Assembly: GCA_026004395.1 (NCBI GenBank)
Contig: BPJB01000001.1
Coordinates: forward strand, 777,226 to 841,225
From: Patescibacteria group bacterium
Lineage (GTDB): Bacteria > Patescibacteriota > Microgenomatia > Levybacterales > UBA12049
Direction: 5' to 3'
Length of the DNA stretch: 64,000 nucleotides
Shown here piece after piece: positions 28,299 through 55,596 of this stretch. The translations under genes and the position numbers were made by a program. Position 1 is the first letter of the stretch; each line of letters starts with the position of its first letter. The notes beneath the pieces were generated by a model, which ran no database searches, had not been told where the DNA came from, and saw only the letters and a program-made list of their open reading frames with translations.

Positions 28299-29687
28299 AT
28301 GAGCGTTTTTAATAAAGAATATATACATACCAATAGAATTTCATCCGTTCGTAAGGAACTTCAAGATTTATTAAGAGAATCTCCAACAGCATCAGAAGTT
28401 GATGATAAATTACTGATTGCTGATCTTGAAGAAAGTCTTAAAGAGACAAAAAGAAAGTTAAGCAGAAGGACGTTTATTGCGGGTGCAGCTGGAATTGCTG
28501 GTGGTACTATTGCTAGTTTTTTGGTTAAAAAATATGATTTAGACAAATCAAGCAATTCAAATTCTACAAAGATCGAACATAAATCTTTTGCAAATACTCT
28601 TAATCCAGACTCTCAACTTGGTGAGAATCCTGCTAACGCAGTTGATTATAAATGGAGAATAGCGATTCCATATGAGATCGCTCAAAATACGATAGATGTA
28701 ACTGTCAGAAGTAATGGTCTAAATATTTCTGAGAAATTAAAACTAAAAGCAGGAGAAAAGCCTGATGTAAATATTCCAATGTTTGTAGGTCCTGATAACA
28801 AATTATATTGTTATCTATATGGAATACCAACAAGTGATAGTGGCATAGTAGAGGTAAATATAGGTGACAATAATTATAATATTTTTCTTAAGAGTATAGT
28901 TCCACAAGTGGGTGATAGAACAGGATTGTTTTTACTTGAAGAAGAAATTTCAGATTTAAAAGATAGTGTTCTTTTTAATAATATTGTTGAAATTTTGGAG
29001 AATGCAGAAATATTTCTTCCTACTGAAGACAAATTTACAGTATGGATACCACAATTAGCTTTTCCAGGGAGAACTGTTATAAGTGAAGATCGGATTGGTA
29101 TTGTTGTGTCACAAGAACAAATTCAGCAATCAAATTTTTTAACATCGGAGTTGCCTTATATTTTGGGTAAAAGTATACTACCAATTTATTTTTCGCCTGA
29201 TAAGCAGAATCTTATAAAACCGGGTATATTGAAACAAATAGGAGATTTTATTGAAACATATCAATCACAAACAACAGTAGGACAACTTAAAGCCAATGGT
29301 GCTAAATTTAATGACGAAGGCCAAATTATTACCTATCCTTCTTATCTTCAAGCTTTACAGGTTGTTTCTTATGATTCAAATTTTACCAAAGCAGGTAATA
29401 TTACTTTAAATTCCAACATTGAAGATTTCAATGATTTATTCGCGCAAATATATACAATTACCGCTAATACAGAATATCTTCAAAAGTTTTCAGACTGGTT
29501 TGATAATACTAATTCCATTCAACGTGCATTTACAGTCCCATTACTTCAAAAATATACAACTTTGTTAGAGATAATGCATAAGGGTGATAGGAGAAATACT
29601 GCCTATAAAAACATAAAAGAATTTTTATCAAAAAGACGAATTGATAGTAGCAATTCTAAATCAAATCAAAGATCAATAACCCCATAA
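28299..29687 (+). CDS. Hypothetical exported/membrane protein with Tat-like signal
   Basis: 462 aa. LSRRTFIAGAAGIAGGTIASFLV (RRxF + hydrophobic) ~55 aa from the N-terminus. Same architecture as the upstream gene. AT-rich. Confidence 0.35.
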   Translation: MSVFNKEYIHTNRISSVRKELQDLLRESPTASEVDDKLLIADLEESLKETKRKLSRRTFIAGAAGIAGGTIASFLVKKYDLDKSSNSNSTKIEHKSFANTLNPDSQLGENPANAVDYKWRIAIPYEIAQNTIDVTVRSNGLNISEKLKLKAGEKPDVNIPMFVGPDNKLYCYLYGIPTSDSGIVEVNIGDNNYNIFLKSIVPQVGDRTGLFLLEEEISDLKDSVLFNNIVEILENAEIFLPTEDKFTVWIPQLAFPGRTVISEDRIGIVVSQEQIQQSNFLTSELPYILGKSILPIYFSPDKQNLIKPGILKQIGDFIETYQSQTTVGQLKANGAKFNDEGQIITYPSYLQALQVVSYDSNFTKAGNITLNSNIEDFNDLFAQIYTITANTEYLQKFSDWFDNTNSIQRAFTVPLLQKYTTLLEIMHKGDRRNTAYKNIKEFLSKRRIDSSNSKSNQRSITP

Positions 29688-29820: not shown

Positions 29821-30312
29821 ATGAGCCTCACTAAAGCAATAATTTTTGTTTTATTAATAATGTCATTTATTATTGGTAGTATTTTTCTTGCAACTTTTCC
29901 TTTTTCATTTCTACACAGAGAATTAAGTATTCAAAATAACTCTAAAAAAATTAACTTTTATTGGAATTATAATAATAACAAAAAACTAATATCTTGTTTA
30001 AAAGAAATTAGCACACAAAAACAGCAGCATTTAAATAAAATAATGTTAATAATAGAAGATTCAAATTTGCAAACGCCATTATCTAAACCAATATATGAAG
30101 AAAAGAAACAACTTCTTAAAGTTTTTTTGTATCTTCCAAGCTCTCCTATGATTAAAAATAATAATCTTGCTTATACTAGAGTTGTCTATACAAATCTTAT
30201 TTTTTCTTTAATGGAATATTATAAAATGCAAGATCAACAGAATTGTTTATACGAAGAATATTTGGAAACAAGAGACAATAAAATACGATATTTTAATATC
30301 TCTTTAAAATGA
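29821..30312 (+). CDS. Hypothetical small membrane protein (very AT-rich)
   Basis: 163 aa ORF with N-terminal TM helix, Asn/Lys/Ile-rich. Overlaps the start of the large downstream gene by 4 nt. Confidence 0.25.
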   Translation: MSLTKAIIFVLLIMSFIIGSIFLATFPFSFLHRELSIQNNSKKINFYWNYNNNKKLISCLKEISTQKQQHLNKIMLIIEDSNLQTPLSKPIYEEKKQLLKVFLYLPSSPMIKNNNLAYTRVVYTNLIFSLMEYYKMQDQQNCLYEEYLETRDNKIRYFNISLK

Positions 30313-33161
30313 AAAATTTTCTTGATAGAAAAGAAACTTATTTAATAGTTATACTCAGCTTTATTTTACTTTTTCTTGTTTTAGTTAATAAAAATACTTT
30401 TGCTCAAGTTTGTTCTACATACTGTAATGAACAATATGGTATTCCTACAAATCATGTTTGTGCGTATGTAATTGATTGTAATGGTTATGAAATCTGTAGA
30501 GCTGCTCCTCGAAACTGTATGGGTTATGAATGTATTTATTGTCCGCCCCCACCATCTTCTGATGGTGGTTATGGGGATGGTTCGTATGATGCACCATATA
30601 ATAGTCCATATTATGCAGATTTTCGTGTTACAGGGGTTGGTGTGAGGAATAGGAATGGTAATACTCAGTCGTATTATGTAGCAGATTCACCTGGGTATAA
30701 TATCGATGGAGATCCGATATATGTTTCTGTGAGTATATTGAATGATGGTAATGGTTATCCTGATACTTCTTCAAGGCATGCTGTGTATAAGGATGTTGAT
30801 GCATATAATAGTGGTTCAGCCTCCATGTATATAGACTCATCTGATAACTGGCCTCCAGGCACTACAGCTACTTATCAGTCATGGTCTGGAGGTGTAGGCA
30901 GTGGTCAGTTTACGAGTCCATATTTTATGCAGCGTAATGCAGGTAGGTATAGGGTTTATGTTAAAGCCAACTATAATAATGCGGTGACGGAGTGGAATTA
31001 TTCAAATAATACGGGGTCTAGCGCTATTTATGAGGTCAGATCATCAATTTTTGGTTGGGTGTGTTGGAGTTTGGATGAGGATGCCCAGTGTGATGATGCT
31101 AGTGGGAGTACACCAGCTGATCCTTTGGTGAGTAATATACGGATTAGTTTGTATAGGGATGATAATAATAATTATGGTACTTTTTTGGGTACAGATACTA
31201 CGGTGCAAACGAGTAATTGGAACAGAAGTTATGCTTTTGATAATCTGAGTGCTGGAGATTATAAAGTGAGTTGGGATGATCCTGATTGGCTGCCTATTTC
31301 CTCACAGGAGAGGACAGCAAGTCTTGGTCCGCATACGAGGATCAGGTTTGCGGTGAAGCCAGCGTATAGGCTTTGGGGTTATGTGTTTGTGGATGAGGAT
31401 CGGGATGGTGTTCGGGATAGTAATGAGACTGTGGGATATTCTGGGGTGAGAGTTAGTTTGAGTGGTGAGGAGAGTAGGACGACGACGACAGATGCTAATG
31501 GGATGTATGAGTTTACTTCTCTTCCACGTGGTACGTATACGATCACGATTACAGAGCCTAATGGGTATAAGGCTTATCCTTCAGTGAGTAAGCAGCAGGT
31601 AATAGATCGTAATGAGACTCAGAGGAACTGGAGGAATGATTTTGGTATCAATCGGGTGTATAGTATAACAGGTAGGGTGTATGCTGATGCCAATCGGGAT
31701 GGGAGTTATTCAGCAGCTGATGTTGCGATAGCTAATCAGAGTGTTAGTTTGACAGGGAGTAGTTCAGCGAGTGTTGTTACTGACTCCAATGGGGTGTATA
31801 GTTTTGATAGACTTGAGCCTGGTGAGTATTTGGTGACTACTACACCACCTGCTGATTATACGGTGTTGACCTCACTTCCTTTGCGGGTGGTAATCACCTC
31901 TTCTAATGTAGCTAATCAAGATATACGTTTTTATGGTAAGTATACGATCTCAGGTGTGGTGTTTGTTGATGAGGATGATAGTAAGACGAAGAATAATCAG
32001 GAGCAGAATTATCCAGCTAATCCGCAGATAGCAGTTACCTCATCTCCAACTGGAGCTCCTCTTCCTCAGGTGGTGAATAATGCTGATGGTTCGTATCAGG
32101 TAACAGGACTTATCTCAGGGGAGTATACAGTGGCGTATAGTGCGCTGCCTCTTGGGTATTATGTGTTTCATCCCCGACCAGCGTTCTATGCTCCAAGAGT
32201 TGGTGTTGGCTGTAGTCCTGCGCCCCAGTCACCAGGAGGAAGCTGTGATGGAAATAACAATATAGTTGATCTGAACTTTGCGATCAAAGCTGGTGAGCCG
32301 TGGATGCAGATCTATGGTGCGGATGTGAGGTTTGATGAGGGGTTGAATGACCCTGTGCCTCCAACACCTAATGCTGCCTGTGGTGGTGCTTATGTGATCC
32401 TGCCGGGTAGTGGTGGTACTCCTGGTGTTGGATTTAGTGGAGATCTGCCACCTAAGCTTAATCTGGGTAGTATCTCCTCTTTGGGTTGGCTGGTGGGTGG
32501 TGTGCAGTATCCCTCGTTGTTTAAGCCGGTGAGAGCTAAGGTGATCAGAACAGCTTATGGTTATCTGATGTTTGCTGTTGGTCGGGGTAATGTGCGTACT
32601 GTTAATCTCTCCTCTGTATGTGATCCTGCCAACTGTACTCTGCCTGCTTCTTTGGCATCAGGTATCTATACTGCAACAGGAAATGTTAATCTTAATGCTT
32701 TTACCTTTCCTGCTAATCGGGACTATATCTTCCTCATAGATGGTACTCTGCGTATTAAAGGACAGATCCGAGTTCCCACTACCTCAACAGCTACATTCTC
32801 TGTCTCTGAGGATATCCTCATTGATGGCAGTGTGGGTAGTCCTCCTTCCTGTCCTCCACCAGCTGTTGGAGCTGCTGATCTGGAGGGTTTTTACAGTGCT
32901 GATCGCAACTTTATCGTTGAGAGTTCTCCTCAGACTGACTGTTCAGCAGGTATCATCGATAAACAGCTTAATGTCCAAGGAGCAATTGTTGTGGATGCTG
33001 GACAGAGAACACCAGGTGGAAGATTTACCAACAACAGAACCTTCTGCACCCAAAATATTGACTACCCCTCCTTCACCCTCAAAGCTAGACCTGATTTCAT
33101 CCTTAATGCCCCTGAGTTCATCAAACGCGAAAACTTCATCTGGCAAGAAGTAGCACCATAA
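30309..33161 (+). CDS. Large secreted/surface protein with Cys-rich N-terminus and tandem Cna-B/SdrD-B-like (prealbumin-fold) repeats
   Basis: 950 aa. Signal/TM at N-terminus, Cys-rich segment (CSTYCNEQYG...CAYVIDCNGYEICRAAPRNCMGYECIYC). At least four repeats of the G.V..D.N.DG..D..E.....V.V.L......TTTD.NG.Y.F..L..G.Y type (e.g. GYVFVDEDRDGVRDSNETVGYSGVRVSL...TDANGMYEFTSLPRGTYTIT). Confidence 0.55.
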   Translation: MKNFLDRKETYLIVILSFILLFLVLVNKNTFAQVCSTYCNEQYGIPTNHVCAYVIDCNGYEICRAAPRNCMGYECIYCPPPPSSDGGYGDGSYDAPYNSPYYADFRVTGVGVRNRNGNTQSYYVADSPGYNIDGDPIYVSVSILNDGNGYPDTSSRHAVYKDVDAYNSGSASMYIDSSDNWPPGTTATYQSWSGGVGSGQFTSPYFMQRNAGRYRVYVKANYNNAVTEWNYSNNTGSSAIYEVRSSIFGWVCWSLDEDAQCDDASGSTPADPLVSNIRISLYRDDNNNYGTFLGTDTTVQTSNWNRSYAFDNLSAGDYKVSWDDPDWLPISSQERTASLGPHTRIRFAVKPAYRLWGYVFVDEDRDGVRDSNETVGYSGVRVSLSGEESRTTTTDANGMYEFTSLPRGTYTITITEPNGYKAYPSVSKQQVIDRNETQRNWRNDFGINRVYSITGRVYADANRDGSYSAADVAIANQSVSLTGSSSASVVTDSNGVYSFDRLEPGEYLVTTTPPADYTVLTSLPLRVVITSSNVANQDIRFYGKYTISGVVFVDEDDSKTKNNQEQNYPANPQIAVTSSPTGAPLPQVVNNADGSYQVTGLISGEYTVAYSALPLGYYVFHPRPAFYAPRVGVGCSPAPQSPGGSCDGNNNIVDLNFAIKAGEPWMQIYGADVRFDEGLNDPVPPTPNAACGGAYVILPGSGGTPGVGFSGDLPPKLNLGSISSLGWLVGGVQYPSLFKPVRAKVIRTAYGYLMFAVGRGNVRTVNLSSVCDPANCTLPASLASGIYTATGNVNLNAFTFPANRDYIFLIDGTLRIKGQIRVPTTSTATFSVSEDILIDGSVGSPPSCPPPAVGAADLEGFYSADRNFIVESSPQTDCSAGIIDKQLNVQGAIVVDAGQRTPGGRFTNNRTFCTQNIDYPSFTLKARPDFILNAPEFIKRENFIWQEVAP

Positions 33162-41065: not shown

Positions 41066-43042
41066 ATGTGGCAAAAAATTTTCTCTGACAAAAGATCTCA
41101 GTTCTTCAGCCTTATCATCCTAATTCTCATCGGAACAGCGATACCTCTAACTATTCTTCTAAGTCAACAGGAACAAGATATCCGCCAACAAGCAGCCGAG
41201 ACATCACAAGTATGCTCAACAGATCAAGCAACAGACACAATGCTTATCATTGATCGCTCAGGTAGCATGGGACGAGCAACATCTACTACAGATCCCACTC
41301 CGCGCATTGATAGTGCCAAAACTGCTGCCAATGCATTTCTGGACATCCTAGCACAGCGAACTGCAGAACCAAAACATGCAGTAAGTCTAACGACTATCTC
41401 ATCTGAATCTATGGTAAAACTCGATCCATCCCTAACACAAGATTTGCAGAGAGTGAAAGCTGTAATTAATAGTCTTACTCCGGGAGGAGGAACCTGTATT
41501 GAATGTGCTATCAAAACTGCCGCTGATGATTTTGCCAATAAGGAAAGAAGTGGTATCAAAAATATTGCTGTTATGCTTACGGACGGAGGAGCAACACAGT
41601 ATATAGGAGGACCAGCTGATACTTCACCAACAAATCGAGCTGAAGCTGAAAAACGCGCATTTGAAAGAGCGATGCAAGTACATAAACAATACAATGTAAC
41701 ATTCTATACAATTGGCTTTGGTGATGTAGTTAAAGATGAGCTTCTTCTTAAGATAGCCACTTCCTCTGGTGGTGAGTATGTTTTTGCACCCAGTAAAGAA
41801 AAACTGAAACAAATTTATGAAAATCTGGCTAAGATTATTGGGAAAGGATCAGTTACAGGCAATGTCTTCAACGATCTCAACGGCAATGGAATTAAAGAAA
41901 CAAATGAACCATTCCTTCCAGGATGGAAAGTTGATCTTCTAGCAGGAAATACTGTTGTTGGAAATTCTACTACATCTGATGAAGGATATTTCTCTATCAC
42001 AGGTATCTGTGATGGTACATACCAACTCAAACTCAATCTCCAGCCAGGATGGAGACAAACAACACCTATCAACAATGGAGTACATCCCATTACAATATCC
42101 AAAGGAAGTACTATAACAGACAAACTTTTTGGTGTACAACTTATGCCAAAAGCGACTACACTCGCATGCTTACCTTCTGATCTTACCCTTTCAGAGACTC
42201 CCGGAACAATAACTGCAACACTTCGAGATAGTGATGGTAATCCAATTCCAGGACAAACACTTACATGGTCATCCCCCAATCCCTCTCTTATTATCTCACC
42301 TACTTCTCAAACAACTGGAGCAAATGGCACTATCACTGCACAAGTCTCTGTTGGCAATCCTGAAGATAAAAGTGAAGAATTTACTTCACAACTCACGGTA
42401 ACGAGTGCTGGATCTTCACAATATAATCAAGCAAGCTGTATTGTGAATGTCTCTTTCAAACCCAACGTTACTACCCTTTCGTTTAATATCTTCCTCCATG
42501 GAATTGGCAAAAGCGGAGACAATGCCAATCCTAATAGATTTGATCTAAGTAATGCTAATCCTCTCAATCCTGAGCGACCTTTCCTCATTGAGGTATATAG
42601 TATTGAGGGTGAAAATCCACTTATTGCAAGAGTTCAAGGAACATTAGTATATGATTCTAAAGACGGCATATTCAGAGGAACAATACAACTTCCCAATACT
42701 GTTCAATCTGGGAAATACAATATCTTCGTTAAATCACCTCAATATATCTTCAGACGTGTACCTCAGACATTAACAATAGTCAAAGGACAACAGTATATAG
42801 TGCCCACTATTACACTCGTATCTGGAGATGTTGATGACAATGATGAACTTGATATTCTTGACTACAATATACTTGCTGGATGCTACTCAGATTTTGCACC
42901 AGCACCCTCCTGTACGGAAGAATTGAAACAAAAAGCAGATCTTAGAGATGATGGACAAGTTAATCAAGAAGATGTTAATCTATTCTTAAGAGAGCTCTCC
43001 GTTCAACGTGGAGATCAAAGACCAAACCAACAATACCGATAA
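41066..43042 (+). CDS. Membrane-anchored vWA-domain protein with SdrD-B-like and Ig-like domains and C-terminal dockerin module
   Basis: 658 aa. N-terminal TM, vWA MIDAS DTMLIIDRSGSMG, Cna-B-like segment (GNVFNDLNGNGIKETNEP..GWKVDLL...TTSDEGYFSITGICDGTYQL). C-terminal dockerin-type duplicated Ca-binding repeats (GDVDDNDELDILDYNIL ... DLRDDGQVNQEDVNLFL). Confidence 0.6.
   Translation: MWQKIFSDKRSQFFSLIILILIGTAIPLTILLSQQEQDIRQQAAETSQVCSTDQATDTMLIIDRSGSMGRATSTTDPTPRIDSAKTAANAFLDILAQRTAEPKHAVSLTTISSESMVKLDPSLTQDLQRVKAVINSLTPGGGTCIECAIKTAADDFANKERSGIKNIAVMLTDGGATQYIGGPADTSPTNRAEAEKRAFERAMQVHKQYNVTFYTIGFGDVVKDELLLKIATSSGGEYVFAPSKEKLKQIYENLAKIIGKGSVTGNVFNDLNGNGIKETNEPFLPGWKVDLLAGNTVVGNSTTSDEGYFSITGICDGTYQLKLNLQPGWRQTTPINNGVHPITISKGSTITDKLFGVQLMPKATTLACLPSDLTLSETPGTITATLRDSDGNPIPGQTLTWSSPNPSLIISPTSQTTGANGTITAQVSVGNPEDKSEEFTSQLTVTSAGSSQYNQASCIVNVSFKPNVTTLSFNIFLHGIGKSGDNANPNRFDLSNANPLNPERPFLIEVYSIEGENPLIARVQGTLVYDSKDGIFRGTIQLPNTVQSGKYNIFVKSPQYIFRRVPQTLTIVKGQQYIVPTITLVSGDVDDNDELDILDYNILAGCYSDFAPAPSCTEELKQKADLRDDGQVNQEDVNLFLRELSVQRGDQRPNQQYR
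42846..42900 (+). repeat. 55-nt exact direct repeat (copy 1) inside dockerin-coding region
   Basis: aacttgatattcttgactacaatatacttgctggatgctactcagattttgcacc is identical to 44983-45037. Confidence 0.8.
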
Positions 43043-43043
43043 T

Positions 43044-45191
43044 ATGTTACATTCATTGTCATCAAATAAGAAAATTCTTTTTCTTGTCCTGATAGGAATT
43101 TTACTCATCAGCCTACCTCTAACCATCTATCTCTTACAAAAGCAACAAGAAACACGAAGTAAAGCAGAATTAGCAACAACTCTCTTCTTTGAACCCCAGT
43201 CAACGAGTGCATCTCCTATTCAAAAAAATGTAAACGATATTTTTTCAGTGAATATGATGGTCAATCCTGGACAGAACCAGATTTCACTGGTTAAATTTGA
43301 AATTACCTACGATGCAACCAAAATTACGGCTCTAGGAACAAAAGGTTTTACCACTAATACAAATGCATTTCCAGTAACCGTAGAAGGTCCATTTATAACT
43401 GAAGTAAACAACGTGGGTAAGATACAGGGCACTGTTTCAATTGGTTCAGATTATAACAAGGCAATTACCTCCCAAACCATAGTCGGATCTATAGAGTTTA
43501 AAGCAAAAGCCAGCACATCCACCCAAACTACACAAATTAATTTCAGTAGTACCAATACTCAAGTGCTTTCTCTTGGTACAGGTGATCAAGCCAGTGAAAA
43601 TGTACTTTCATCCACATCACCAGCATATATTACTATCTTACCTGCAATAACTTCTTGTTCGTTTAATCCTTCTACTGCGGATATTATGATGATTGTGGAT
43701 GTTTCAGGAAGTACTCTTGATAACCGCACTTCACAAAAAACAGCCATGAAGAATTTTGTGGATAGTGTAATCGCAAATAACAGTGTCAGTGGTCAGTACC
43801 GTATTGGTCTTATCTCCTACGCATCAACCGCTCGCCTCAATTTCTCTTTGCAAAATGGAACAGACTACAATGGACTAAAAAATGCGATTGACAACATGCC
43901 ATTTATTGATAATGCATCAGCAGGAGAAGCAGAAGCAGTTAGACTTTCAACAGACGAATTTACCAAATACGGAAGAAGCGGAGTAAGAAAAGCAGTAATT
44001 TTGCTTACAGATACAATTGATTCTTATACCAACAATGCAGCTAATGATGCATACAATATTCACAAGACCGCATTTTATGTTTTGGCTTATGATATTACTA
44101 ATAGCACCATCCGCCGCATGCTACAGGATCTAGCAGGTAGAACCGGTGGGACATATCATGAATACACTGGTACATCAGGACCATCTGAAAATCAACTTCT
44201 TCAAGATCTTGCATCAGATGTCACGTGTCCCACAGTTACTCCAACTACCCCTTCACCAACACCTACTCCAACACCTGCCTCTCCAACTCTCACATTTACA
44301 GCAGCTCAGACATCTCTCAGTTATAACGGCTCAACCACTCTGAGTTGGAACTCTACAAATGCATCCTCATGTACCGCCTCCGGAGGGTGGAGCGGCACAA
44401 AACCACTCAGCGGAACTGAAAGCACTGGTCCTCTCACATCATCCAAAATCTACGTACTAACCTGTACTGGTCCGGGAGGAAGCGTAACAAAATCTGTTAC
44501 TGTAACTGTTGCACTGCCTACACCTACTCGAACACCGACTCCAACACCAACACCCATACCTACAAATACTCCAGTACCAACGAATACACCTATTCCGCAG
44601 GCAACCAAATTTAAATTTATCGTTTACCTCCATGGTCTGGGAAATAGTGGAGACAATCGCAACCCCACAGCTCATTCACTCAGCAATAAAAATCCTATTA
44701 GACAACAGAGATCACTGGATATTGAAGTCCTCACTACCGGAGCAACACGTCAGATTGTTCTTAAAAAAAGCTTCACAACGGGTCTGACATATAACGCAGC
44801 GCAAGGGTATTTTGAGGGTCTTGTAGATATGGGAACAACACTCCAATCAGGAATCTATAATATCAATATCCATACCTATCAATATCTTTGGAATTCTTTT
44901 GCAGGTGTTCAGATTACCGCAGGACAGACAAATACATTCCCATCAATTTCTTTAGTTACGGGTGATATCAATAATGATGACCAACTTGATATTCTTGACT
45001 ACAATATACTTGCTGGATGCTACTCAGATTTTGCACCTGCTGTGTCCTGCCCTGCTACAGTTGTCCCATCAACACCTTTCCTCCTCAAAGATATGGCTGA
45101 TCTCACTGACGATGGCAAGGTAAACCAGTTTGATTACAATCTTTTCCTTCGTGAATACTCAGTACAAAACAGCAACCGTATTACACAATAA
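43044..45191 (+). CDS. Membrane-anchored cohesin-like + vWA-domain protein with PT-linkers and C-terminal dockerin module
   Basis: ORF track starts at 43008, but the likely start is MLHSLSS at 43044, just after the upstream stop. TM helix, cohesin-like N-terminal domain (FSVNMMVNPGQNQISLVKFEITYDATKITALG...GSIEFKAK), vWA MIDAS DIMMIVDVSGST. Pro/Thr linkers (TPTTPSPTPTPTPASPT), Ig-like domain. C-terminal ~190 aa colinear with the upstream protein tail, including dockerin repeats (GDINNDDQLDILDYNIL ... DLTDDGKVNQFDYNLFL). Confidence 0.55.
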   Translation: MLHSLSSNKKILFLVLIGILLISLPLTIYLLQKQQETRSKAELATTLFFEPQSTSASPIQKNVNDIFSVNMMVNPGQNQISLVKFEITYDATKITALGTKGFTTNTNAFPVTVEGPFITEVNNVGKIQGTVSIGSDYNKAITSQTIVGSIEFKAKASTSTQTTQINFSSTNTQVLSLGTGDQASENVLSSTSPAYITILPAITSCSFNPSTADIMMIVDVSGSTLDNRTSQKTAMKNFVDSVIANNSVSGQYRIGLISYASTARLNFSLQNGTDYNGLKNAIDNMPFIDNASAGEAEAVRLSTDEFTKYGRSGVRKAVILLTDTIDSYTNNAANDAYNIHKTAFYVLAYDITNSTIRRMLQDLAGRTGGTYHEYTGTSGPSENQLLQDLASDVTCPTVTPTTPSPTPTPTPASPTLTFTAAQTSLSYNGSTTLSWNSTNASSCTASGGWSGTKPLSGTESTGPLTSSKIYVLTCTGPGGSVTKSVTVTVALPTPTRTPTPTPTPIPTNTPVPTNTPIPQATKFKFIVYLHGLGNSGDNRNPTAHSLSNKNPIRQQRSLDIEVLTTGATRQIVLKKSFTTGLTYNAAQGYFEGLVDMGTTLQSGIYNINIHTYQYLWNSFAGVQITAGQTNTFPSISLVTGDINNDDQLDILDYNILAGCYSDFAPAVSCPATVVPSTPFLLKDMADLTDDGKVNQFDYNLFLREYSVQNSNRITQ
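44983..45037 (+). repeat. 55-nt exact direct repeat (copy 2) inside dockerin-coding region
   Basis: Identical to 42846-42900. Encodes LDILDYNILAGCYSDFAP in both proteins. Confidence 0.8.
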
Positions 45192-45352
45192 ATATAACTG
45201 GCAAAAAATTATTTATCCAATGATCACTTCCGACTTAACTCTTTGCTTAAAACTAAAAATATCGCAGATAATTTGTTTAATGTTATTCATAAGGAAATAA
45301 TGACTACTTGCAATAAGAAAAAACAACTTATTATAATAATTAAATAAAGAGT

Positions 45353-45955
45353 ATGTCGAAAAAAACATTTGCCCTCATAGTAATACTTCTAATTTTGACA
45401 ATTATTCTTTTGGCTATTGCTTTGTTCCGATCAGAAACACCTTCTTCTCAACCCCCAACAATTTCTCGACCTACTCCCTCACCTACAGAAAAACCAGTCG
45501 GAAATACAACTCTTCGATTAAGTCCAAATCCAGTCTATCCAACGATTGGCACTAACTCAGCAACAACTGTAGCAGTTGAGATAGACACAGGCATAGACCG
45601 TGTAACTGGAGTACAACTTGAAATCGCATATGATCCACGAGTCCTAACTAATATGGAGATTAAGCCGGGTGATTTCTTCAGCAACCCAACAGTACTTCCT
45701 GTTGGTGGAATTAATACGAAGACTGGGAGAATAACATTTGCGGTTGTTCCCAGTAAAATTGGTGAATCACGAACAGGCAAGGGAACTGTTGCTCTACTCA
45801 CCTTTATCCCCTCCATAAATGCAGGCGTAGAACAGACAAGGATTGAGATTCTTGAAAAATCAAAAGTTTCTGTACCTCCACGTGATAGCATTAAATCTGT
45901 TCTCAAATCATTTGAAGGAACCACTGTCATTCTTTCTTCTCCTAGTGCGCGTTAA
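45353..45955 (+). CDS. Membrane-anchored single cohesin-domain protein
   Basis: 200 aa. N-terminal TM, Pro/Ser/Thr linker, then ~140-aa domain with cohesin-like pattern (TTVAVEIDTGIDRVTGVQLEIAYDPRVL....G.F..........N...G.ITFAVV.........GKGTVALLTF). Confidence 0.5.
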   Translation: MSKKTFALIVILLILTIILLAIALFRSETPSSQPPTISRPTPSPTEKPVGNTTLRLSPNPVYPTIGTNSATTVAVEIDTGIDRVTGVQLEIAYDPRVLTNMEIKPGDFFSNPTVLPVGGINTKTGRITFAVVPSKIGESRTGKGTVALLTFIPSINAGVEQTRIEILEKSKVSVPPRDSIKSVLKSFEGTTVILSSPSAR

Positions 45956-45977: not shown

Positions 45978-46745
45978 GTGTACACTTACCCTATGAATGA
46001 CCTTGAAACAGCACGGATTTTATTCAACGAAGCTAAAAATCTTGGACTTAATCCACAATGGATCACTGAATATGGGCTTTTCTCTATTAATCTTGATAAC
46101 ACAATTCGATTTGTATTTTATGGAATCTCCTATCTCAATTCACAAATAAGTAGTTATCTTTGCCGTAACAAACATGCAACGCGAAAAGTTCTTGATCTCT
46201 TTAGACTACCTAATATTCCCTATGCCTTGCCTGCAACAGATGAAGAAGCACTCTTTTTCCTAAAGAAATATAAACGAATTGTCGTTAAACCAACTGTTGG
46301 TTCAAATTCTGAAAATGTCCATCTTATAACCGAAAAGAGTCAACTGAAAAATATAGACCGCGCTACCTCTATTTTTGAAAAATATATTGAAGGACGAGAA
46401 TTTCGTTATTTGGTATTAAAAAACCAAGTAATTGCTGTTCATGAACGCATCTTCCCTGGTTTACTGAATGACCCAAAAGTTGTTAAAAGAATATCCTATC
46501 CACAAAACAAATGGGAGAAAAAGCTAATTGCAATTTCTCTAAAAGCAACTCAGGCTCTTGGTACAAAATTTGCAGCAGTTGATTTTAAAATTGATAAAAA
46601 CGAAAATCCTTATATTTTAGAAGTAAATGCAGCAGCGGGAATAAAATGGTTTCACTATCCTAGTGAAGGTCCTAGTGTCAATGTTGCTAATCTGCTGCTT
46701 ACGGCAACTATTGAAGAATTAAGAGATAAAAACACTATGCAGTAA
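45978..46745 (+). CDS. ATP-grasp fold ligase (RimK/glutathione-synthetase-like), short
   Basis: 255 aa. VVKPTVGSNSENVHL, EKYIEGREFRYLVL, and catalytic-loop-like ILEVNAAAG typical of ATP-grasp enzymes. Confidence 0.5.
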   Translation: MYTYPMNDLETARILFNEAKNLGLNPQWITEYGLFSINLDNTIRFVFYGISYLNSQISSYLCRNKHATRKVLDLFRLPNIPYALPATDEEALFFLKKYKRIVVKPTVGSNSENVHLITEKSQLKNIDRATSIFEKYIEGREFRYLVLKNQVIAVHERIFPGLLNDPKVVKRISYPQNKWEKKLIAISLKATQALGTKFAAVDFKIDKNENPYILEVNAAAGIKWFHYPSEGPSVNVANLLLTATIEELRDKNTMQ

Positions 46746-47811: not shown

Positions 47812-49077
47812 ATGGAAAAAGAGTTTTTTATAAAAGGTAAATTTGAACCTCAGCTAGCTCCATTCTCAGATAGTCATATATCAGAAAACGTTAAGAATAC
47901 TGAGAACATAAAAGAAATTCCTCAAGAAATTACACCAGAGGTAATTATAAATGCAAATCAATCCACAGAAGTAAAAGAAAATCTGCGTGTTTACGACGAC
48001 AATCGCAGAGATTCCGCAAAAGGTCTGGTATTGGAGTGGGATTGTATAGATGCACGCATTATCCGACCTCTAGCTTTAGAATCTTTTTACTATAATACCA
48101 TAGCTAATGGCGGAAATCCTGAAAAAATACAACAAGCAGTGAATAGTCCAGTAACAAAATTTGCACTTGTTGTAGCCCATGAACCAGTTTGCGGTGGTAG
48201 GATGGCAAAACACCAACAAATAGAAAAAGGAATATTCTCAGATAGTGAAGGATTATCTCGTTATATATCAGATGAAATCGACCATCCATCAGTAATTCAA
48301 GCTGCTGTAAAGGCAAAAGAACTGGCACAGCTTACTTCAAAACTAGTAGTTGCTATGGTACACAACCATGAAGATGGAACAAGAAAAGTCCTTGCAGTAT
48401 TTAACCGAACTGATGGCGGATATACTGCATTAATTGATGATGATGTCTTTGAAAACCCAACACCCCAAAATCCTCTTGATGATCATCTCCTTCCCTATCT
48501 GCCGACAAGTGAACTTCCCGAAGAGATTCAATTGTATTTAGATAAATACGAACGTGCAAGAAAAGCTCTACTTGATGCCAATCCTCATGCTTATATGAAA
48601 ATGAAAAATCATAATCCACGGATAGGCAAAATTGCGACAGACTTAAGAGCAGCTGAATTATGGATTCCAAATCTTGTACAACCAGGAGAGATTGTCCGAT
48701 TTACAGTACCTCGCCGTAAAATACCTCGAGTTAACGGTGAGAAAAAAACTATTCTTAATCCTAAAGATATAGAACTTATCTGGGAACAGGCCGAGTATGT
48801 AATGACTCATTCTGTTGAAAGCCGCGAAGCCAATTCTGGTCCTTTCAAAGATACAGACACTTTTCTTATTTCCACACCGGACTTTGCTCTGTCTCAGGAA
48901 ATTGCCTTAAGGCTTGCACAGCAACCATTTGCTCAACCATGGCTTATGGACGAACGCAATAGAGTTCTTGTTATTCAAAATAATGCAGGAGTAGTGCGAA
49001 AAGCATCTCAGATGCGCTATACTTTCAAAGATGGAGATGTCGTCGCTTTTGAAGAAGTCTCAAGAGCAATAGCATAA
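47812..49077 (+). CDS. Hypothetical protein with N-terminal CxDxR / H...CGG motifs
   Basis: 421 aa. WDCIDARI and VVAHEPVCGG loosely resemble beta-CA zinc-ligand motifs. Remainder unassignable. Confidence 0.3.
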   Translation: MEKEFFIKGKFEPQLAPFSDSHISENVKNTENIKEIPQEITPEVIINANQSTEVKENLRVYDDNRRDSAKGLVLEWDCIDARIIRPLALESFYYNTIANGGNPEKIQQAVNSPVTKFALVVAHEPVCGGRMAKHQQIEKGIFSDSEGLSRYISDEIDHPSVIQAAVKAKELAQLTSKLVVAMVHNHEDGTRKVLAVFNRTDGGYTALIDDDVFENPTPQNPLDDHLLPYLPTSELPEEIQLYLDKYERARKALLDANPHAYMKMKNHNPRIGKIATDLRAAELWIPNLVQPGEIVRFTVPRRKIPRVNGEKKTILNPKDIELIWEQAEYVMTHSVESREANSGPFKDTDTFLISTPDFALSQEIALRLAQQPFAQPWLMDERNRVLVIQNNAGVVRKASQMRYTFKDGDVVAFEEVSRAIA

Positions 49078-50737: not shown

Positions 50738-50813
50738 TGGTGGGTACTGATGGAATCGAACCATCCACCTCTGTCTTATCAGGACAGCGTTCTAGCCGAT
50801 GAACTAAGTACCC
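50738..50813 (-). tRNA. tRNA-Ile (anticodon GAT), CCA encoded
   Basis: Minus-strand 76-nt cloverleaf GGGTACTTAGTTCATCGGCTAGAACGCTGTCCTGATAAGACAGAGGTGGATGGTTCGATTCCATCAGTACCCACCA. 7-bp acceptor, D stem GTTC/GAAC, anticodon stem CTGTC/GACAG with loop CTGATAA, T stem GATGG/CCATC. Confidence 0.85.
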
Positions 50814-51778: not shown

Positions 51779-51898
51779 ACTCAGAATTGAGGTTCAACCT
51801 CATTCTTTTTCTTTAAGAAGAGATTAAAAATACTTACAATCTACTCACTAAAAAAACATTACATCCGCGGAGGGATACACGCTAAATCTGTTTACTTG

Positions 51899-51971
51899 AG
51901 GCGCGAAGGGGACTTGCACCCCTGAATGGCTGTTCTGCAGACAGCTGTGTTAGCTACTTCACCACCGCGCC
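51899..51971 (-). tRNA. tRNA-Cys (anticodon GCA), CCA not encoded
   Basis: Minus-strand 73-nt GGCGCGGTGGTGAAGTAGCTAACACAGCTGTCTGCAGAACAGCCATTCAGGGGTGCAAGTCCCCTTCGCGCCT. Acceptor GGCGCGG/TCGCGCC (one G-U), anticodon stem GCTGT/ACAGC with loop CTGCAGA, T arm AGGGG-TGCAAGT-CCCCT. D stem is short (3 bp). Confidence 0.7.
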
Positions 51972-52192: not shown

Positions 52193-52957
52193 ATGGCAAT
52201 TCTTGCTGAAACGCTGAAGAATAAATTTCACGGGTTTCTTTATGGCAGTCCACATCCTGCTTTACCTTCAGATTTTCCATCAGAGAGATTAAGATATATT
52301 AGAGATTATGGAAAAGTTGGAGTCACAGAACTTGTCTCAATCATCTGTAAAGATAGTTCATATAATTTTTTTGCTCCATATTTTGCTCTTAAATTGTTAG
52401 ATTGCCAACCTGAGCATCAATATGAACTACTATCACATATAGTACAAACTTTTAGCATAGGAGGAACATATGAGGATACAAGTCAGGTTATCACATCGTT
52501 CTTCCAAACTCGACCTTCTCTACCAACACAAGCTGTTGCACCTAATAAACTACGTCAAGTAATAGAAAGAGGTCCAGCATATGTGGAGGAATGTATAGTA
52601 CGTGTGGCAAAAGAAGTAGAAGAAAAAGGCAAGTCTCCGGTAATTCTTGGCTATGCTGGCTTGTTAGCACTCAGAGAATTTATTATCCGATGGAAAACAT
52701 CATCTATATATATCTTATTTCCTGATAATCTAACAGATAGTGAAAAAGTAAAAGGTTACGAAATAATAAGAGAACAAACCAAAAGTTATGTAGGTGATCT
52801 TGCACCACGGAGTTTCACTTCCACAAACAATTTTGGATTGATTGATAATACTATTTATACAGGGGAAACTATAAAAAAAGCAAAAAATTTTATTAATCAG
52901 TACAATCCAAACGCCCTAATCTCAGATCATCCTTTTTATATTACTCGCCTCGCCTAG
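52193..52957 (+). CDS. Hypothetical protein (possible phosphoribosyltransferase-like C-terminus)
   Basis: 254 aa ORF. GLIDNTIYTGETIKKA weakly resembles the type I PRTase PRPP-binding motif. Confidence 0.3.
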   Translation: MAILAETLKNKFHGFLYGSPHPALPSDFPSERLRYIRDYGKVGVTELVSIICKDSSYNFFAPYFALKLLDCQPEHQYELLSHIVQTFSIGGTYEDTSQVITSFFQTRPSLPTQAVAPNKLRQVIERGPAYVEECIVRVAKEVEEKGKSPVILGYAGLLALREFIIRWKTSSIYILFPDNLTDSEKVKGYEIIREQTKSYVGDLAPRSFTSTNNFGLIDNTIYTGETIKKAKNFINQYNPNALISDHPFYITRLA

Positions 52958-53320: not shown

Positions 53321-54785
<1,465 letters not shown>

Positions 54786-55596
54786 GAATTGGTTTTGAAC
54801 AAAAAATAACAGGATATAATACCTGTTAAAGGGAAGTTCAAAACCTATATATTCCCTACCACTTTTTGATTGTCAAAGATCTATGATTTATTTTTTGTTA
54901 TACCACTAATAACCAGTGGCAAAGTTAAGAGGTAGTAAATTGCTGTTTTGAAGAGACAAAAAAACTCGCCGAGGCGAGTTATTCTTTCTCCTCTGGCAAC
55001 AACAATCACATGGTAGTAGTTATTATACCCGTATTTTAAGGTTTGTCAACCCCGTTGGATTTATTCACTGTAAAGTGAATCCCCATTTTCGTTGCGTAAT
55101 ACATATAAAGATGCCTCCAAAGGGAAGAGTTGACGTATAGGAAAAAACTTATAACAAAACGTGAACAGATTGTTTCTGCTTTTGTTAATAACTATATTGG
55201 AAAGGATATAGATGTGAGATTATTCGATGGAAACTAATGGACGTGTCTTTCATCGAACTCGTTTAAGACTATAGTTGATGACAAAATACCGAATAGATAC
55301 GGGTGGTCTATTGCTCTATTACTACGAAAACTGAGAAATCACAAAATGCGGAATTTGAGAAGTAAATTTACAATAAATTTATTTTCATAGATATCTTTAC
55401 ATTTTTTTAAGAAATATATAAAATATTGCATTCTTACAACATCTGAATACTTTATGAAAAATGTCTAAAACACTTTCTATTTCTATTAAATATCTTTAGG
55501 AATAAGAAAATAAAAATATAATAAAATAATTCCTTATCTTTTTAAAGCAGTAAACAGTGTTTTAAACTTAATTTCTAAAGACAATTCACAAATTCT

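Follow-up and report, generated by a model that had tools for sequence, protein, structure and literature searches.

A putative membrane-anchored cohesin and X-module–dockerin system for the display of VWA proteins in a Patescibacteria bacterium

Three adjacent genes from a Patescibacteria bacterium with a tiny genome (Levybacteria-like), all of whose products are called hypothetical in GenBank, most likely form a system that hangs surface proteins on the cell. The proposed system is non-cellulosomal and membrane-anchored, it combines cohesins with X-module–dockerin (X-Doc) dyads, and its cargo here would be VWA adhesins. The genes lie on the same strand within the 64-kb stretch of DNA that we analysed (the window), and we refer to them as genes 1, 2, and 3 (Table 1). 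A first-pass annotation of this DNA had described three co-directional genes and read them as a cohesin–dockerin system of VWA proteins; ORF calling finds the genes as described, and overall our analysis confirms that observation and supports that reading. Host attachment and surface organisation are largely obscure in the Patescibacteria/CPR, and their surface proteins are mostly annotated as "hypothetical." The locus offers a concrete, testable scheme: a membrane cohesin as the socket, a portable X-module–dockerin as the plug, and adaptors that carry both modules.

Table 1. Features of the three-gene locus. Positions are those of the window; residue numbers for gene 2 start from the ATG at 43044.
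Feature	Position	Strand	Description	Evidence
Gene 1	41066..43042	+	658 aa, GIW61966.1; putative secreted or anchored VWA adhesin-like cargo with C-terminal X-Doc dyad	ORF, Pfam
Gene 1 N-terminal region	41102..41194	+	Hydrophobic helix (aa 13-32) and conserved motif SQQEQDIRQQA (aa 33-43)	Sequence
Gene 1 VWA domain	41240..41821	+	MIDAS DRSGS (aa 63-67)	Pfam VWA aa 59-252, 60.3 bits
Gene 1 stalk	41858..42415	+	SdrD_B (aa 265-351) and Big_1 (aa 381-450) beta-sandwiches	Pfam 41.1 and 43.8 bits, above cutoff
Gene 1 X-module	42476..42823	+	X-module-like beta-sandwich (aa 471-586)	
Gene 1 dockerin	42824..43006	+	Two Ca-loop/helix repeats and Cys-Cys linker (aa 587-647)	AF2 helices, profile matches
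Gene 2	43044..45191	+	715 aa, GIW61967.1; putative adaptor-type protein with both cohesin and X-Doc dyad	
Gene 2 N-terminal region	43074..43166	+	Hydrophobic helix (aa 11-31) and motif QKQQETRSKA	Sequence; family consensus
Gene 2 cohesin	43170..43640	+	aa ~43-199	Pfam, hhalign
Gene 2 VWA domain	43680..44147	+	MIDAS DVSGS (aa 219-223)	Pfam 52 bits
Gene 2 linkers and two-Cys domain	44229..44600	+	Pro/Thr linker, small two-Cys domain (aa 416-489), second Pro/Thr linker	Sequence
Gene 2 X-module and dockerin	44610..45167	+	X-module (aa 523-639) and dockerin (aa 640-708)	Gene 1 tail identity; tail HMM E 5e-78
Gene 3	45353..45955	+	200 aa, GIW61968.1; membrane-anchored single cohesin, proposed anchor	
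Gene 3 TM helix and stalk	45368..45505	+	TM helix (aa ~6-25) and Pro/Ser/Thr stalk (aa 26-51)	AF2, family conservation
Gene 3 cohesin	45506..45937	+	Beta-sandwich (aa 52-195)	Pfam, Foldseek, profile vs PDB

Gene 3 is the proposed anchor, and it is essentially a single cohesin domain, as had been suggested. Pfam's Cohesin model (PF00963, gathering threshold 24.1 bits) matches aa 72-168 at 35.2 bits, and all but 2 of the 61 gene 3 homologues listed contain the same domain. AF2 predicts the nine-stranded jelly-roll fold of cohesins for gene 3 (pLDDT 89). Foldseek gave 72 matches of this model to PDB structures at E ≤ 1e-3, and the best 50 of the 72 are all cohesins (best values, E of 4e-8 and TM-score (target) of 0.78); the fold matches include the non-cellulosomal 2xdh and 2jh2 and the ScaE cohesin 2zf9. 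The gene 3 profile matches type I (1g1k, 2vn5) and type II (3l8q, 1qzn, 2b59_A) cohesins about equally, and the model contains just a 3-residue helix (type II cohesins are marked by a helix between strands 6 and 7 and by beta-flaps). At the N terminus, AF2 places a helix at residues 3-25 (pLDDT 91-98), and its TM residues are near-invariant across the family.

A second cohesin lies in gene 2, which is arranged as a TM helix, a cohesin, a VWA domain, Pro/Thr linkers, and the same type of tail as in gene 1. (We take the ATG at 43044 as the likely start, in agreement with the GenBank protein; the GTG at 43008, which would give 727 aa, is a mechanical ORF start only.) The first-pass annotation had recognised a cohesin in the first extracellular domain of this protein and a VWA domain after it, and homology points to the same assignments. 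The cohesin match is above the Pfam threshold (25.1 bits, aa 60-170, or 72-182 in the 727-aa numbering). An HMM of the gene 3 family did not detect the gene 2 cohesin directly; in a profile–profile comparison with hhalign, however, the two were related with 98.6% probability (E = 6e-16, 142 columns), and the jelly-roll fold is indicated for gene 2 by this homology only. Within the family of the gene 2 cohesin domain, 30 of 101 members match PF00963 at E ≤ 1e-3. The VWA domain of gene 2 exceeds the PF00092 cutoff (52 against 23.8 bits) and has its MIDAS motif. The "Ig-like" domain that had been placed in gene 2 was not confirmed, as aa 416-489 have no Pfam match.

The remaining gene of the trio, gene 1, has a TM helix, a VWA domain, SdrD_B and Big_1 domains, and a 190-aa tail. 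Its VWA domain with a DxSxS MIDAS motif had been predicted and is well above the Pfam cutoff (PF00092, 23.8 bits), and the motif that follows its N-terminal helix recurs in related X-Doc ORFs. The SdrD_B and Big_1 domains had gone unnamed in the first-pass annotation. One public copy of gene 1 carries the JGI name "Mg-chelatase subunit ChlD," and gene 1 has weak NCBIfam matches to BchD-ChlD (25.4 bits) and PRK13685 (26.5 bits), which would fit BatA/ChlD-type VWA proteins that reside inside the cell or in the periplasm. We find this reading scarcely credible. Those scores are far under the cutoffs (499 and 432 bits) and cover the VWA domain alone; TIGR02031 (ChlD/BchD) requires at least 499 bits and an AAA+ domain plus VWA, and gene 1 lacks the AAA+ domain. 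An N-terminal export helix also argues against this type, as do the modules typical of surface proteins (SdrD_B, Big_1, cohesin, and dockerin), and we rejected gene 1 as a member of the ChlD/BatA type.

Several features of the neighborhood were also examined. Genes 1 and 3 are in different reading frames. A scan of the locus for promoters and terminators did no better than on shuffled sequence. The ATP-grasp gene that had been reported to follow the trio is real (RimK-like, 40.7 bits in Pfam), but it is unrelated to the module: it is found in 1 of 60 related loci, and we rejected it as a component. A sequence scan for LPxT[GAS] found no such motif in any of the three proteins, whose C-termini are the ends of dockerins or cohesins, and genes 1-3 do not qualify as components of a sortase-dependent pilus or as LPXTG surface proteins.

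Genes 1 and 2 end in the same tail of about 190 aa (45% identity over 196 aa, E = 5e-50), as had been noted. That the tail includes a dockerin was also correct, but the rest of it is not unrelated sequence: it is an X-module, and the tail as a whole is a type II-like X-module–dockerin dyad. The Ig-like X-module is directly N-terminal to the dockerin and packs rigidly with it. In comparisons to the PDB, the tail profile matches solved X-Doc dyads and both type I and type II dockerins, and the model of the whole tail superimposes on a solved dyad that binds a cohesin. The Ca loops are DVDDNDELDILD and DLRDDGQVNQED in gene 1, which contains the strings that had been quoted as a duplicated dockerin-like segment, and DINNDDQLDILD and DLTDDGKVNQFD in gene 2. 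The tail has the duplicated F-hand of dockerins, with a 12-residue Ca loop and then a helix, twice, in a three-helix fold; in the gene 1 tail, AF2 places the helices at residues 132-141, 153-159, and 169-178. As a caveat, position 3 of the second Ca loop of gene 1 (DLRDDG) is Arg instead of the Thr found in the family.

Taken individually, neither gene reaches the gathering threshold of Pfam's Dockerin_1 model (PF00404, 22.9 bits). In gene 1, aa 587-642 score 17.6 bits within the whole protein and 20.3 bits if the tail is searched alone, and gene 2 scores 12.2 bits. Nevertheless, we consider both to be homologous to dockerins because 92 of 108 homologous tails match Dockerin_1 at E ≤ 0.01 (best E = 3.5e-11). 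(A single-sequence search for tail homologues gave 5 matches and was repeated with a 10-sequence profile.) The family-level matches, the profile matches to dockerins in the PDB, and the AF2 helices together indicate that the DxNxDGxVN repeats are of the dockerin type, with helices, as had been proposed.

The tail is a portable module that occurs on varied cargo (cupredoxin, M28 peptidase, GH16, CBM4_9, PKD, and CHRD). Some of the relatives that bear it have Peptidase_M28, GH16, CBM_4_9, or phosphoesterase domains, as would be expected if the locus encoded a cellulosome-like extracellular enzyme complex that degrades polymers. This is very unlikely, as genes 1-3 lack any catalytic or carbohydrate-binding module (no GH or CBM in Pfam or NCBIfam) and have at most one cohesin per protein, hence no multi-cohesin scaffoldin. 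Also, an HMM search of the 64-kb window found no tails or cohesins beyond those of genes 1-3.

For binding of the dockerin by the cohesin, the sole support is synteny. We collected 60 related genome loci, mostly from Levybacteria, that contain a member of the gene 3 family. In 38 of them, one to four X-Doc genes are clustered with the small cohesin gene, and in 34 an X-Doc gene is directly upstream of it. All 71 of the X-Doc ORFs are on the same strand as the small cohesin. One locus (L010) repeats the exact trio, with an X-Doc protein with VWA, a cohesin–VWA–X-Doc protein, and a small cohesin, so the logic of the trio is conserved in related genomes. The first-pass annotation had described the system as "built on" VWA proteins. 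This is too narrow, as only 12 of the 71 X-Doc ORFs have a VWA domain: VWA is one cargo among many.

The modules might also be present but unpaired. In that case, the X-Doc tail would be a generic C-terminal domain (for the wall, the S-layer, or sorting) or one that recognises a host ligand; the small cohesin would have some other partner; and their adjacency would reflect co-expression of envelope genes. In 16 of the related loci with full flanks, there is a small cohesin but no X-Doc gene within 10 kb, and the beta-sandwich of the tail has weak matches to FlgD_ig (17 of the 108 members), Por_Secre_tail (5), and CarboxypepD_reg (4). These orphans and weak matches, together with the sub-threshold Dockerin_1 scores of genes 1 and 2, fit unpaired modules, and to our knowledge, most non-cellulosomal cohesins and dockerins have no known function (Peer et al. 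2009, cited in PMC10066038). On the other side, every X-Doc ORF has the orientation of the small cohesin and most are its direct neighbors, cohesin binding is the known job of the dyad on which the whole tail superimposes, and one protein family combines both types of module. We consider unpaired modules to be unlikely.

In the display system that we prefer, gene 3 would sit in the cytoplasmic membrane by its conserved N-terminal TM helix and present its cohesin outward on a Pro/Ser/Thr stalk of ~25 residues. It would act as an anchoring scaffoldin like SdbA or ScaE, except that it would be held by the membrane rather than by SLH domains or a sortase. The products of genes 1 and 2 would be exported, and their C-terminal X-Doc dyads would plug into a cohesin in a Ca2+-dependent manner. 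Gene 1, with a plug only, would be the terminal cargo, in which an SdrD_B/Big_1 stalk carries the VWA/MIDAS head. Gene 2 has a socket (the N-terminal cohesin) as well as a plug and might be an adaptor that adds one tier, so that gene 1 would dock onto gene 2 and gene 2 onto gene 3; it would also contribute another VWA head. The adhesive ends, where ligands are bound, are probably the VWA/MIDAS domains. The domain identities, the folds, the rigidity of the X-Doc dyad, and the conservation of the operon are shown by the analysis; we infer that the cohesins of the locus pair with its dockerins and which module partners which, and the system may serve in attachment to the host. The dockerin helices of genes 1 and 2 are alike (the first helices are identical and the second are similar), so their sequences give no clear sign of a strict three-tier specificity. 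A second tether seems redundant if genes 1 and 2 keep their N-terminal helices as uncleaved anchors. In some other X-Doc proteins, a classical cleavable signal peptide would leave the dockerin as the sole tether.

Tentatively, the same parts could assemble further. Proteins with both cohesin and X-Doc, like gene 2, could polymerise head to tail into non-covalent, pilus-like fibres or a lattice, with gene 3 as the membrane base, gene 2 as a shaft or adaptor with a VWA head, and gene 1, which lacks a cohesin, as the adhesive VWA tip. Such a fibre would be a counterpart of sortase pili that is held together non-covalently, and the gene order (plug only, socket and plug, socket and anchor) fits a tip, shaft, and base. 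The N-terminal cohesin of gene 2 has 452 representative homologues, in which the domain is always directly after the N-terminal helix, and 90 of the best 150 of these also have an X-Doc end. In 39 of the 90, the cohesin and the X-Doc are separated by at most 60 residues; these are connectors of 370-420 aa without a passenger. Furthermore, some clusters (L014, L038, L057, and L066) have two to three cohesin-plus-X-Doc genes before the small cohesin. Against the fibre, the window has a single gene of this kind, and pairing of the N-terminal cohesin with an X-Doc of its own type is unsupported by evidence. In cellulosomes, the dockerins borne by a scaffoldin typically do not bind the cohesins of the same scaffoldin. 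We therefore regard fibres as possible but doubtful; they would extend the display system and are compatible with it. If they do form, a bacterial surface appendage would be built here in a new way, and the fibres would be a candidate organelle for host attachment in episymbionts (Levybacteria/Microgenomates).

With the display system, the cohesin–dockerin principle would reach a phylum and a function (the display of adhesins) that are remote from cellulose degradation; this applies in particular to the X-Doc variety, which is mechanically strong and serves to anchor proteins to cells. The modules of the locus are small and well predicted, and they lend themselves to direct expression and testing. 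In open-access and bioRxiv text, we found no description of a cohesin/dockerin display system in Patescibacteria, CPR, or Microgenomates. Adhesion roles of cohesins and dockerins have been proposed in ultra-small bacteria (PMC10066038; PMC8542988). Cohesins and dockerins are found outside of cellulose degradation in Archaeoglobus fulgidus (2XDH), in toxin and glycosidase complexes of C. perfringens (2JH2, 2VO8, and 2W1N), and in proteins of Omnitrophota and Cloacimonadota. In contrast to these, the locus is a compact, conserved operon that includes a dedicated cohesin with a TM anchor, the dockerin never lacks a fused X-module, and there is a large family of cohesin–X-Doc connectors.

Sortase pili with VWA tips (RrgA, GBS104, and PitA) likewise have a VWA distal subunit, an intermediate subunit, and a basal anchor, as well as stalks of SdrD_B, CnaB, or SpaA-like beta-sandwiches. 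However, there is no sortase, LPXTG, or pilin motif here, and the linkage would be a non-covalent cohesin–dockerin interaction rather than an isopeptide bond. The resemblance is a functional analogy only.

The type II X-Doc by which CipA of C. thermocellum is anchored to SdbA, OlpB, or ScaC (PDB 2B59, 3KCP, 5G5D, and 5K39) is similar in that the partner is a cell-bound cohesin protein and the role is surface attachment, not recruitment of enzymes. There, the anchor is an SLH-domain protein and the cargo is a scaffoldin with nine cohesins, whereas here, the proposed anchor has 200 aa, a single cohesin, and a TM helix at its N terminus, and the cargo would be VWA adhesin-like proteins. Sequence identity to the C. 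thermocellum system is only ~15%, the tails here have a conserved Cys pair in the linker between the repeats, and the window, which comes from a Patescibacterium, contains no cellulolytic apparatus. In R. flavefaciens, an XMod-Doc:Coh complex anchors the CttA adhesin to the cell wall and maintains adhesion to the substrate (PMC4266597). CttA and the type III CohE of ScaE resemble the scheme proposed here in combining a non-enzymatic adhesin, a C-terminal XMod-Doc, and a cell-bound anchor with a single cohesin. ScaE is anchored by sortase via LPXTG, whereas gene 3 has a TM helix, and the head of CttA is made of CBMs, where the proteins described here have VWA/MIDAS domains.

Three consecutive genes of the Patescibacteria MAG KatS3mg089 encode two exported VWA proteins that end in an X-module-dockerin (X-Doc) dyad, one of which also has a cohesin, and a single cohesin anchored by a transmembrane (TM) helix. 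The first-pass annotation had proposed three same-strand genes here, and we found co-directional ORFs at those positions. (For gene 2, the GTG at 43008 is merely a mechanical ORF start, which gives a 727-aa numbering.) The proposed vWA domains also held up, and a DxSxS MIDAS motif is present in those of both gene 1 and gene 2. In gene 2, a small Ser/Thr-rich domain with two cysteines lies between two Pro/Thr linkers; it is the domain that the first-pass annotation tentatively labeled Ig-like, and Pfam gives no match for it. The public name of one copy of gene 1, "ChlD," was rejected, as it fails the threshold of its own family (25 versus 499 bits); that these are ChlD/BatA-type proteins is scarcely credible.

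Features of the three-gene cluster and its surroundings (window positions)
Feature	Positions	Strand	Length or residues	Annotation
Gene 1	41066-43042	+	658 aa	GIW61966.1, "hypothetical protein"
Gene 1 N-terminal motif	41162-41194	+	aa 33-43	
Gene 1 VWA			aa 59-252	Pfam, 60.3 bits
Gene 1 SdrD_B			aa 265-351	Pfam
Gene 1 Big_1			aa 381-450	Pfam
Gene 1 Dockerin_1			aa 587-642	Pfam, 17.6 bits, under cutoff of 22.9
Gene 2	43044-45191 (start ATG 43044)	+	715 aa, same length in GenBank	GIW61967.1, "hypothetical protein"
Gene 2 N-terminal motif	43137-43166	+	aa 32-41	
Gene 2 cohesin			aa 60-170 from ATG 43044 (aa 72-182 of 727-aa ORF)	Pfam, 25.1 bits, cutoff 24.1
Gene 2 VWA				Pfam, 52 bits
Gene 2 two-Cys domain	44289-44510		aa 416-489	No Pfam match
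Gene 2 Dockerin_1				Pfam, weak, 12.2 bits
Gene 3	45353-45955	+	200 aa	GIW61968.1, "hypothetical protein"
Gene 3 TM helix	45368-45427			
Gene 3 cohesin			aa 72-168	Pfam, 35.2 bits
ORFs preceding 950-aa protein	28299-29687; 29821-30312			No Pfam match
950-aa protein	30309-33161	+	950 aa	Strong SdrD_B, SpaA, and CarboxypepD_reg repeats; no X-Doc tail
ATP-grasp gene	45978-46745			RimK/cyanophycin-synthetase-like; starts 23 nt after gene 3
421-aa protein	47812-49077	+	421 aa	No significant Pfam domain
tRNA-Ile(GAT)	50738-50813	-		~2.5 kb from 16S
tRNA-Cys	51898-51971	-		Between 16S and tRNA-Ile(GAT)
254-aa ORF	52193-52957	+	254 aa	Between 16S and tRNA-Ile(GAT); no Pfam match
16S rRNA gene (bacterial)	53323-54787	-	1465-nt match	All 1533 positions of bacterial SSU model

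Genes 1 and 2 share 45% identity over their last ~196 residues (E = 5e-50), and a profile search found the same tail in 137 proteins. Dockerin_1 matches 92 of 108 scanned tail proteins (best E = 3.5e-11), so genes 1 and 2 score low because they are divergent and not because the dockerin is absent. The Ca loop and the "DYN(I/L)" helix start each occur twice, the linker between the repeats contains a conserved Cys pair, and the second Ca loop of gene 1 has Arg at loop position 3. The AF2 model of the gene 1 tail (aa 466-658; pLDDT 95.2, pTM 0.90) is a beta-sandwich followed by three helices. Its sole significant Foldseek match in the PDB is 5K39 chain B, the type II X-Doc of C. thermocellum (E = 3e-6, 184 columns aligned). 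Similarly, the best PDB matches to the tail profile are X-Doc dyads (2B59_B, E = 3e-7; 3KCP_A, 4WI0_B, 4U3S_B, and 5G5D_B), with alignments that start inside the X-module; type I dockerins rank after these. The tail is an X-Doc dyad, the kind of module by which cellulosomal bacteria attach scaffoldins or adhesins to their cells.

The AF2 model of gene 3, built with an alignment of homologs (pLDDT 89), has a helix at 3-25, a low-confidence Pro/Ser/Thr stretch, and then a beta-sandwich at 52-193. Foldseek found 72 PDB matches at E <= 1e-3, and the best 50 of these are cohesins without exception (types I, II, and III, as well as non-cellulosomal modules from A. fulgidus and C. perfringens). The family profile also matches solved cohesins at the sequence level, and all but two of the 61 homologs of 170-230 aa are tagged with PF00963. 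Residues of the TM helix rank among the most conserved of the family, which argues for a retained anchor rather than a disposable signal peptide. M1, K4, T5, L8, I9, L12, T16, L19, and A23 are conserved at >=90%, as compared to a mean column identity of 36% in the family, a pattern suggestive of oligomerization or of a specific interaction in the membrane.

The N-terminal domain of gene 2 was not detected directly by the gene 3-family HMM. Among 452 representative homologs (307 at E <= 1e-10), it nearly always occupies residues ~35-195, directly after an N-terminal hydrophobic helix. Of its top 150 homologs, 120 do match the gene 3-family HMM, Pfam Cohesin matches 30 of 101 family members, and the two families align with 98.6% probability in a profile-profile comparison (E = 6e-16, 142 columns). 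By these sequence comparisons, the domain is a divergent cohesin. Overall, the first-pass claims of a dockerin-containing tail of ~190 aa common to genes 1 and 2, a cohesin as the first extracellular domain of gene 2, and a small membrane-anchored single cohesin are all supported.

To examine conservation, we scanned for the gene 3 family using one genome per species, which gave 60 loci (mostly Levybacteria/Levyibacteriota), and labeled ORFs with HMMs for the tail and for both types of cohesin. One to four X-Doc genes are clustered with the small cohesin gene in 38 of the 60 loci, and in 34 an X-Doc gene is immediately upstream. All 71 X-Doc ORFs share the strand of the cohesin. At two loci (L001 and L003), all large proteins upstream of the small cohesin end in the tail, and another (L010) repeats the trio exactly: VWA-XDoc, cohesin-VWA-XDoc, small cohesin. 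The X-Doc and cohesin genes show tight, strand-consistent operon linkage across a phylum-level group. It is improbable that the cohesin and X-Doc modules do not pair: this would fit the sub-threshold dockerin scores and the 16 loci with full flanks in which the small cohesin is an orphan, but it is at odds with the linkage statistics and with the structural identity of the tail to a cohesin-binding dyad. Many public TPA assemblies with the Patescibacteria-type operon carry the title "uncultured Gammaproteobacteria bacterium" (L008-L010, L012, L016, L017, and others), and further ones go under Eisenbacteria, Methylomirabilota, or Limnocylindrales; such records are probably mislabeled or misbinned.

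We consider it fairly probable that these proteins form a cohesin/X-Doc display or anchoring system. Through Ca2+-dependent binding of the X-Doc dyads to cohesins, gene 2, gene 1, or both would be held at the membrane surface by gene 3, and a further place for gene 1 to dock would be the cohesin of gene 2. Ligands are probably bound by the VWA/MIDAS heads, and host attachment is a plausible role in a putative episymbiont. VWA cargo is found on 12 of the 71 X-Doc ORFs, spread over 10 loci; other cargo includes SdrD_B arrays, PKD, CHRD, cupredoxin, M28 peptidase, GH16, and CBM4_9. An enzyme complex is very unlikely, as catalytic and CBM modules are absent at this locus and cohesins are only single.

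An N-terminal cohesin, as in gene 2, is present on 18 of the 71 X-Doc ORFs. There is also a large family of passenger-less connectors of 370-420 aa, with solely an N-terminal helix, a cohesin, and an X-Doc; their genes are sometimes in tandem ahead of the small cohesin gene (L038, L057, and L066). In 39 of 90 representatives with both modules (e.g., the proteins P0188, P0201, P0224, and P0323), <=60 aa separate the two, which makes little sense except for adaptors or polymer subunits. Head-to-tail polymerization, which we view as possible but rather unlikely, would extend the display/anchoring explanation, and both can hold.

A conserved motif, PLT(I/V)xLxQ(Q/E)Q(D/E)xR(S/Q)xA, follows the hydrophobic helix; within the window it occurs in genes 1 and 2 only. 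It leads directly into the first cohesin strand (TTLxFxP) in proteins of the gene 2 type. Of 65 untruncated X-Doc ORFs from related loci (L008-L066), 30 match a strict regular expression for the motif, and relaxed forms are present in more. Possible roles are a lineage-specific sorting signal, a cleavage site, or a signal-peptide c-region of unusual length. Classical AxA signal peptides are present in some other X-Doc proteins, which the dockerin alone would tether.

The ATP-grasp gene noted right after the trio is indeed there, but we rejected it as a member of the conserved module because it is found in just 1 of 60 related loci. The 421-aa protein recurs near the cohesin cluster in five related loci (L008, L010, L011, L012, and L066) and is probably backbone synteny, along with a dCTP deaminase (16 loci) and a Pro_CA_2 protein (five loci). 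At the 950-aa repeat protein, the GC skew switches to +0.28 (30-32 kb), directly past a trough in GC content of 0.28 (28-30 kb). The window has no 23S rRNA, so the rRNA genes appear to be unlinked.

In searches of open-access full text, no account of this operon from Patescibacteria/CPR turned up. Non-cellulosomal cohesins and dockerins are known from every domain of life, and those of Omnitrophota and Cloacimonadota have been proposed to act in adhesion (PMC10066038, PMC8542988). The operon most closely resembles two known systems: the anchoring of CipA through a type II X-Doc:cohesin pair, and the CttA XMod-Doc:ScaE CohE adhesion complex of type III. In contrast to these, it has a bitopic membrane protein as its anchor instead of an SLH or LPXTG protein (a search of genes 1-3 for LPXTG found none), its cargo resembles VWA adhesins, it belongs to a Patescibacterium, and it comes with a large family of cohesin-X-Doc connectors.
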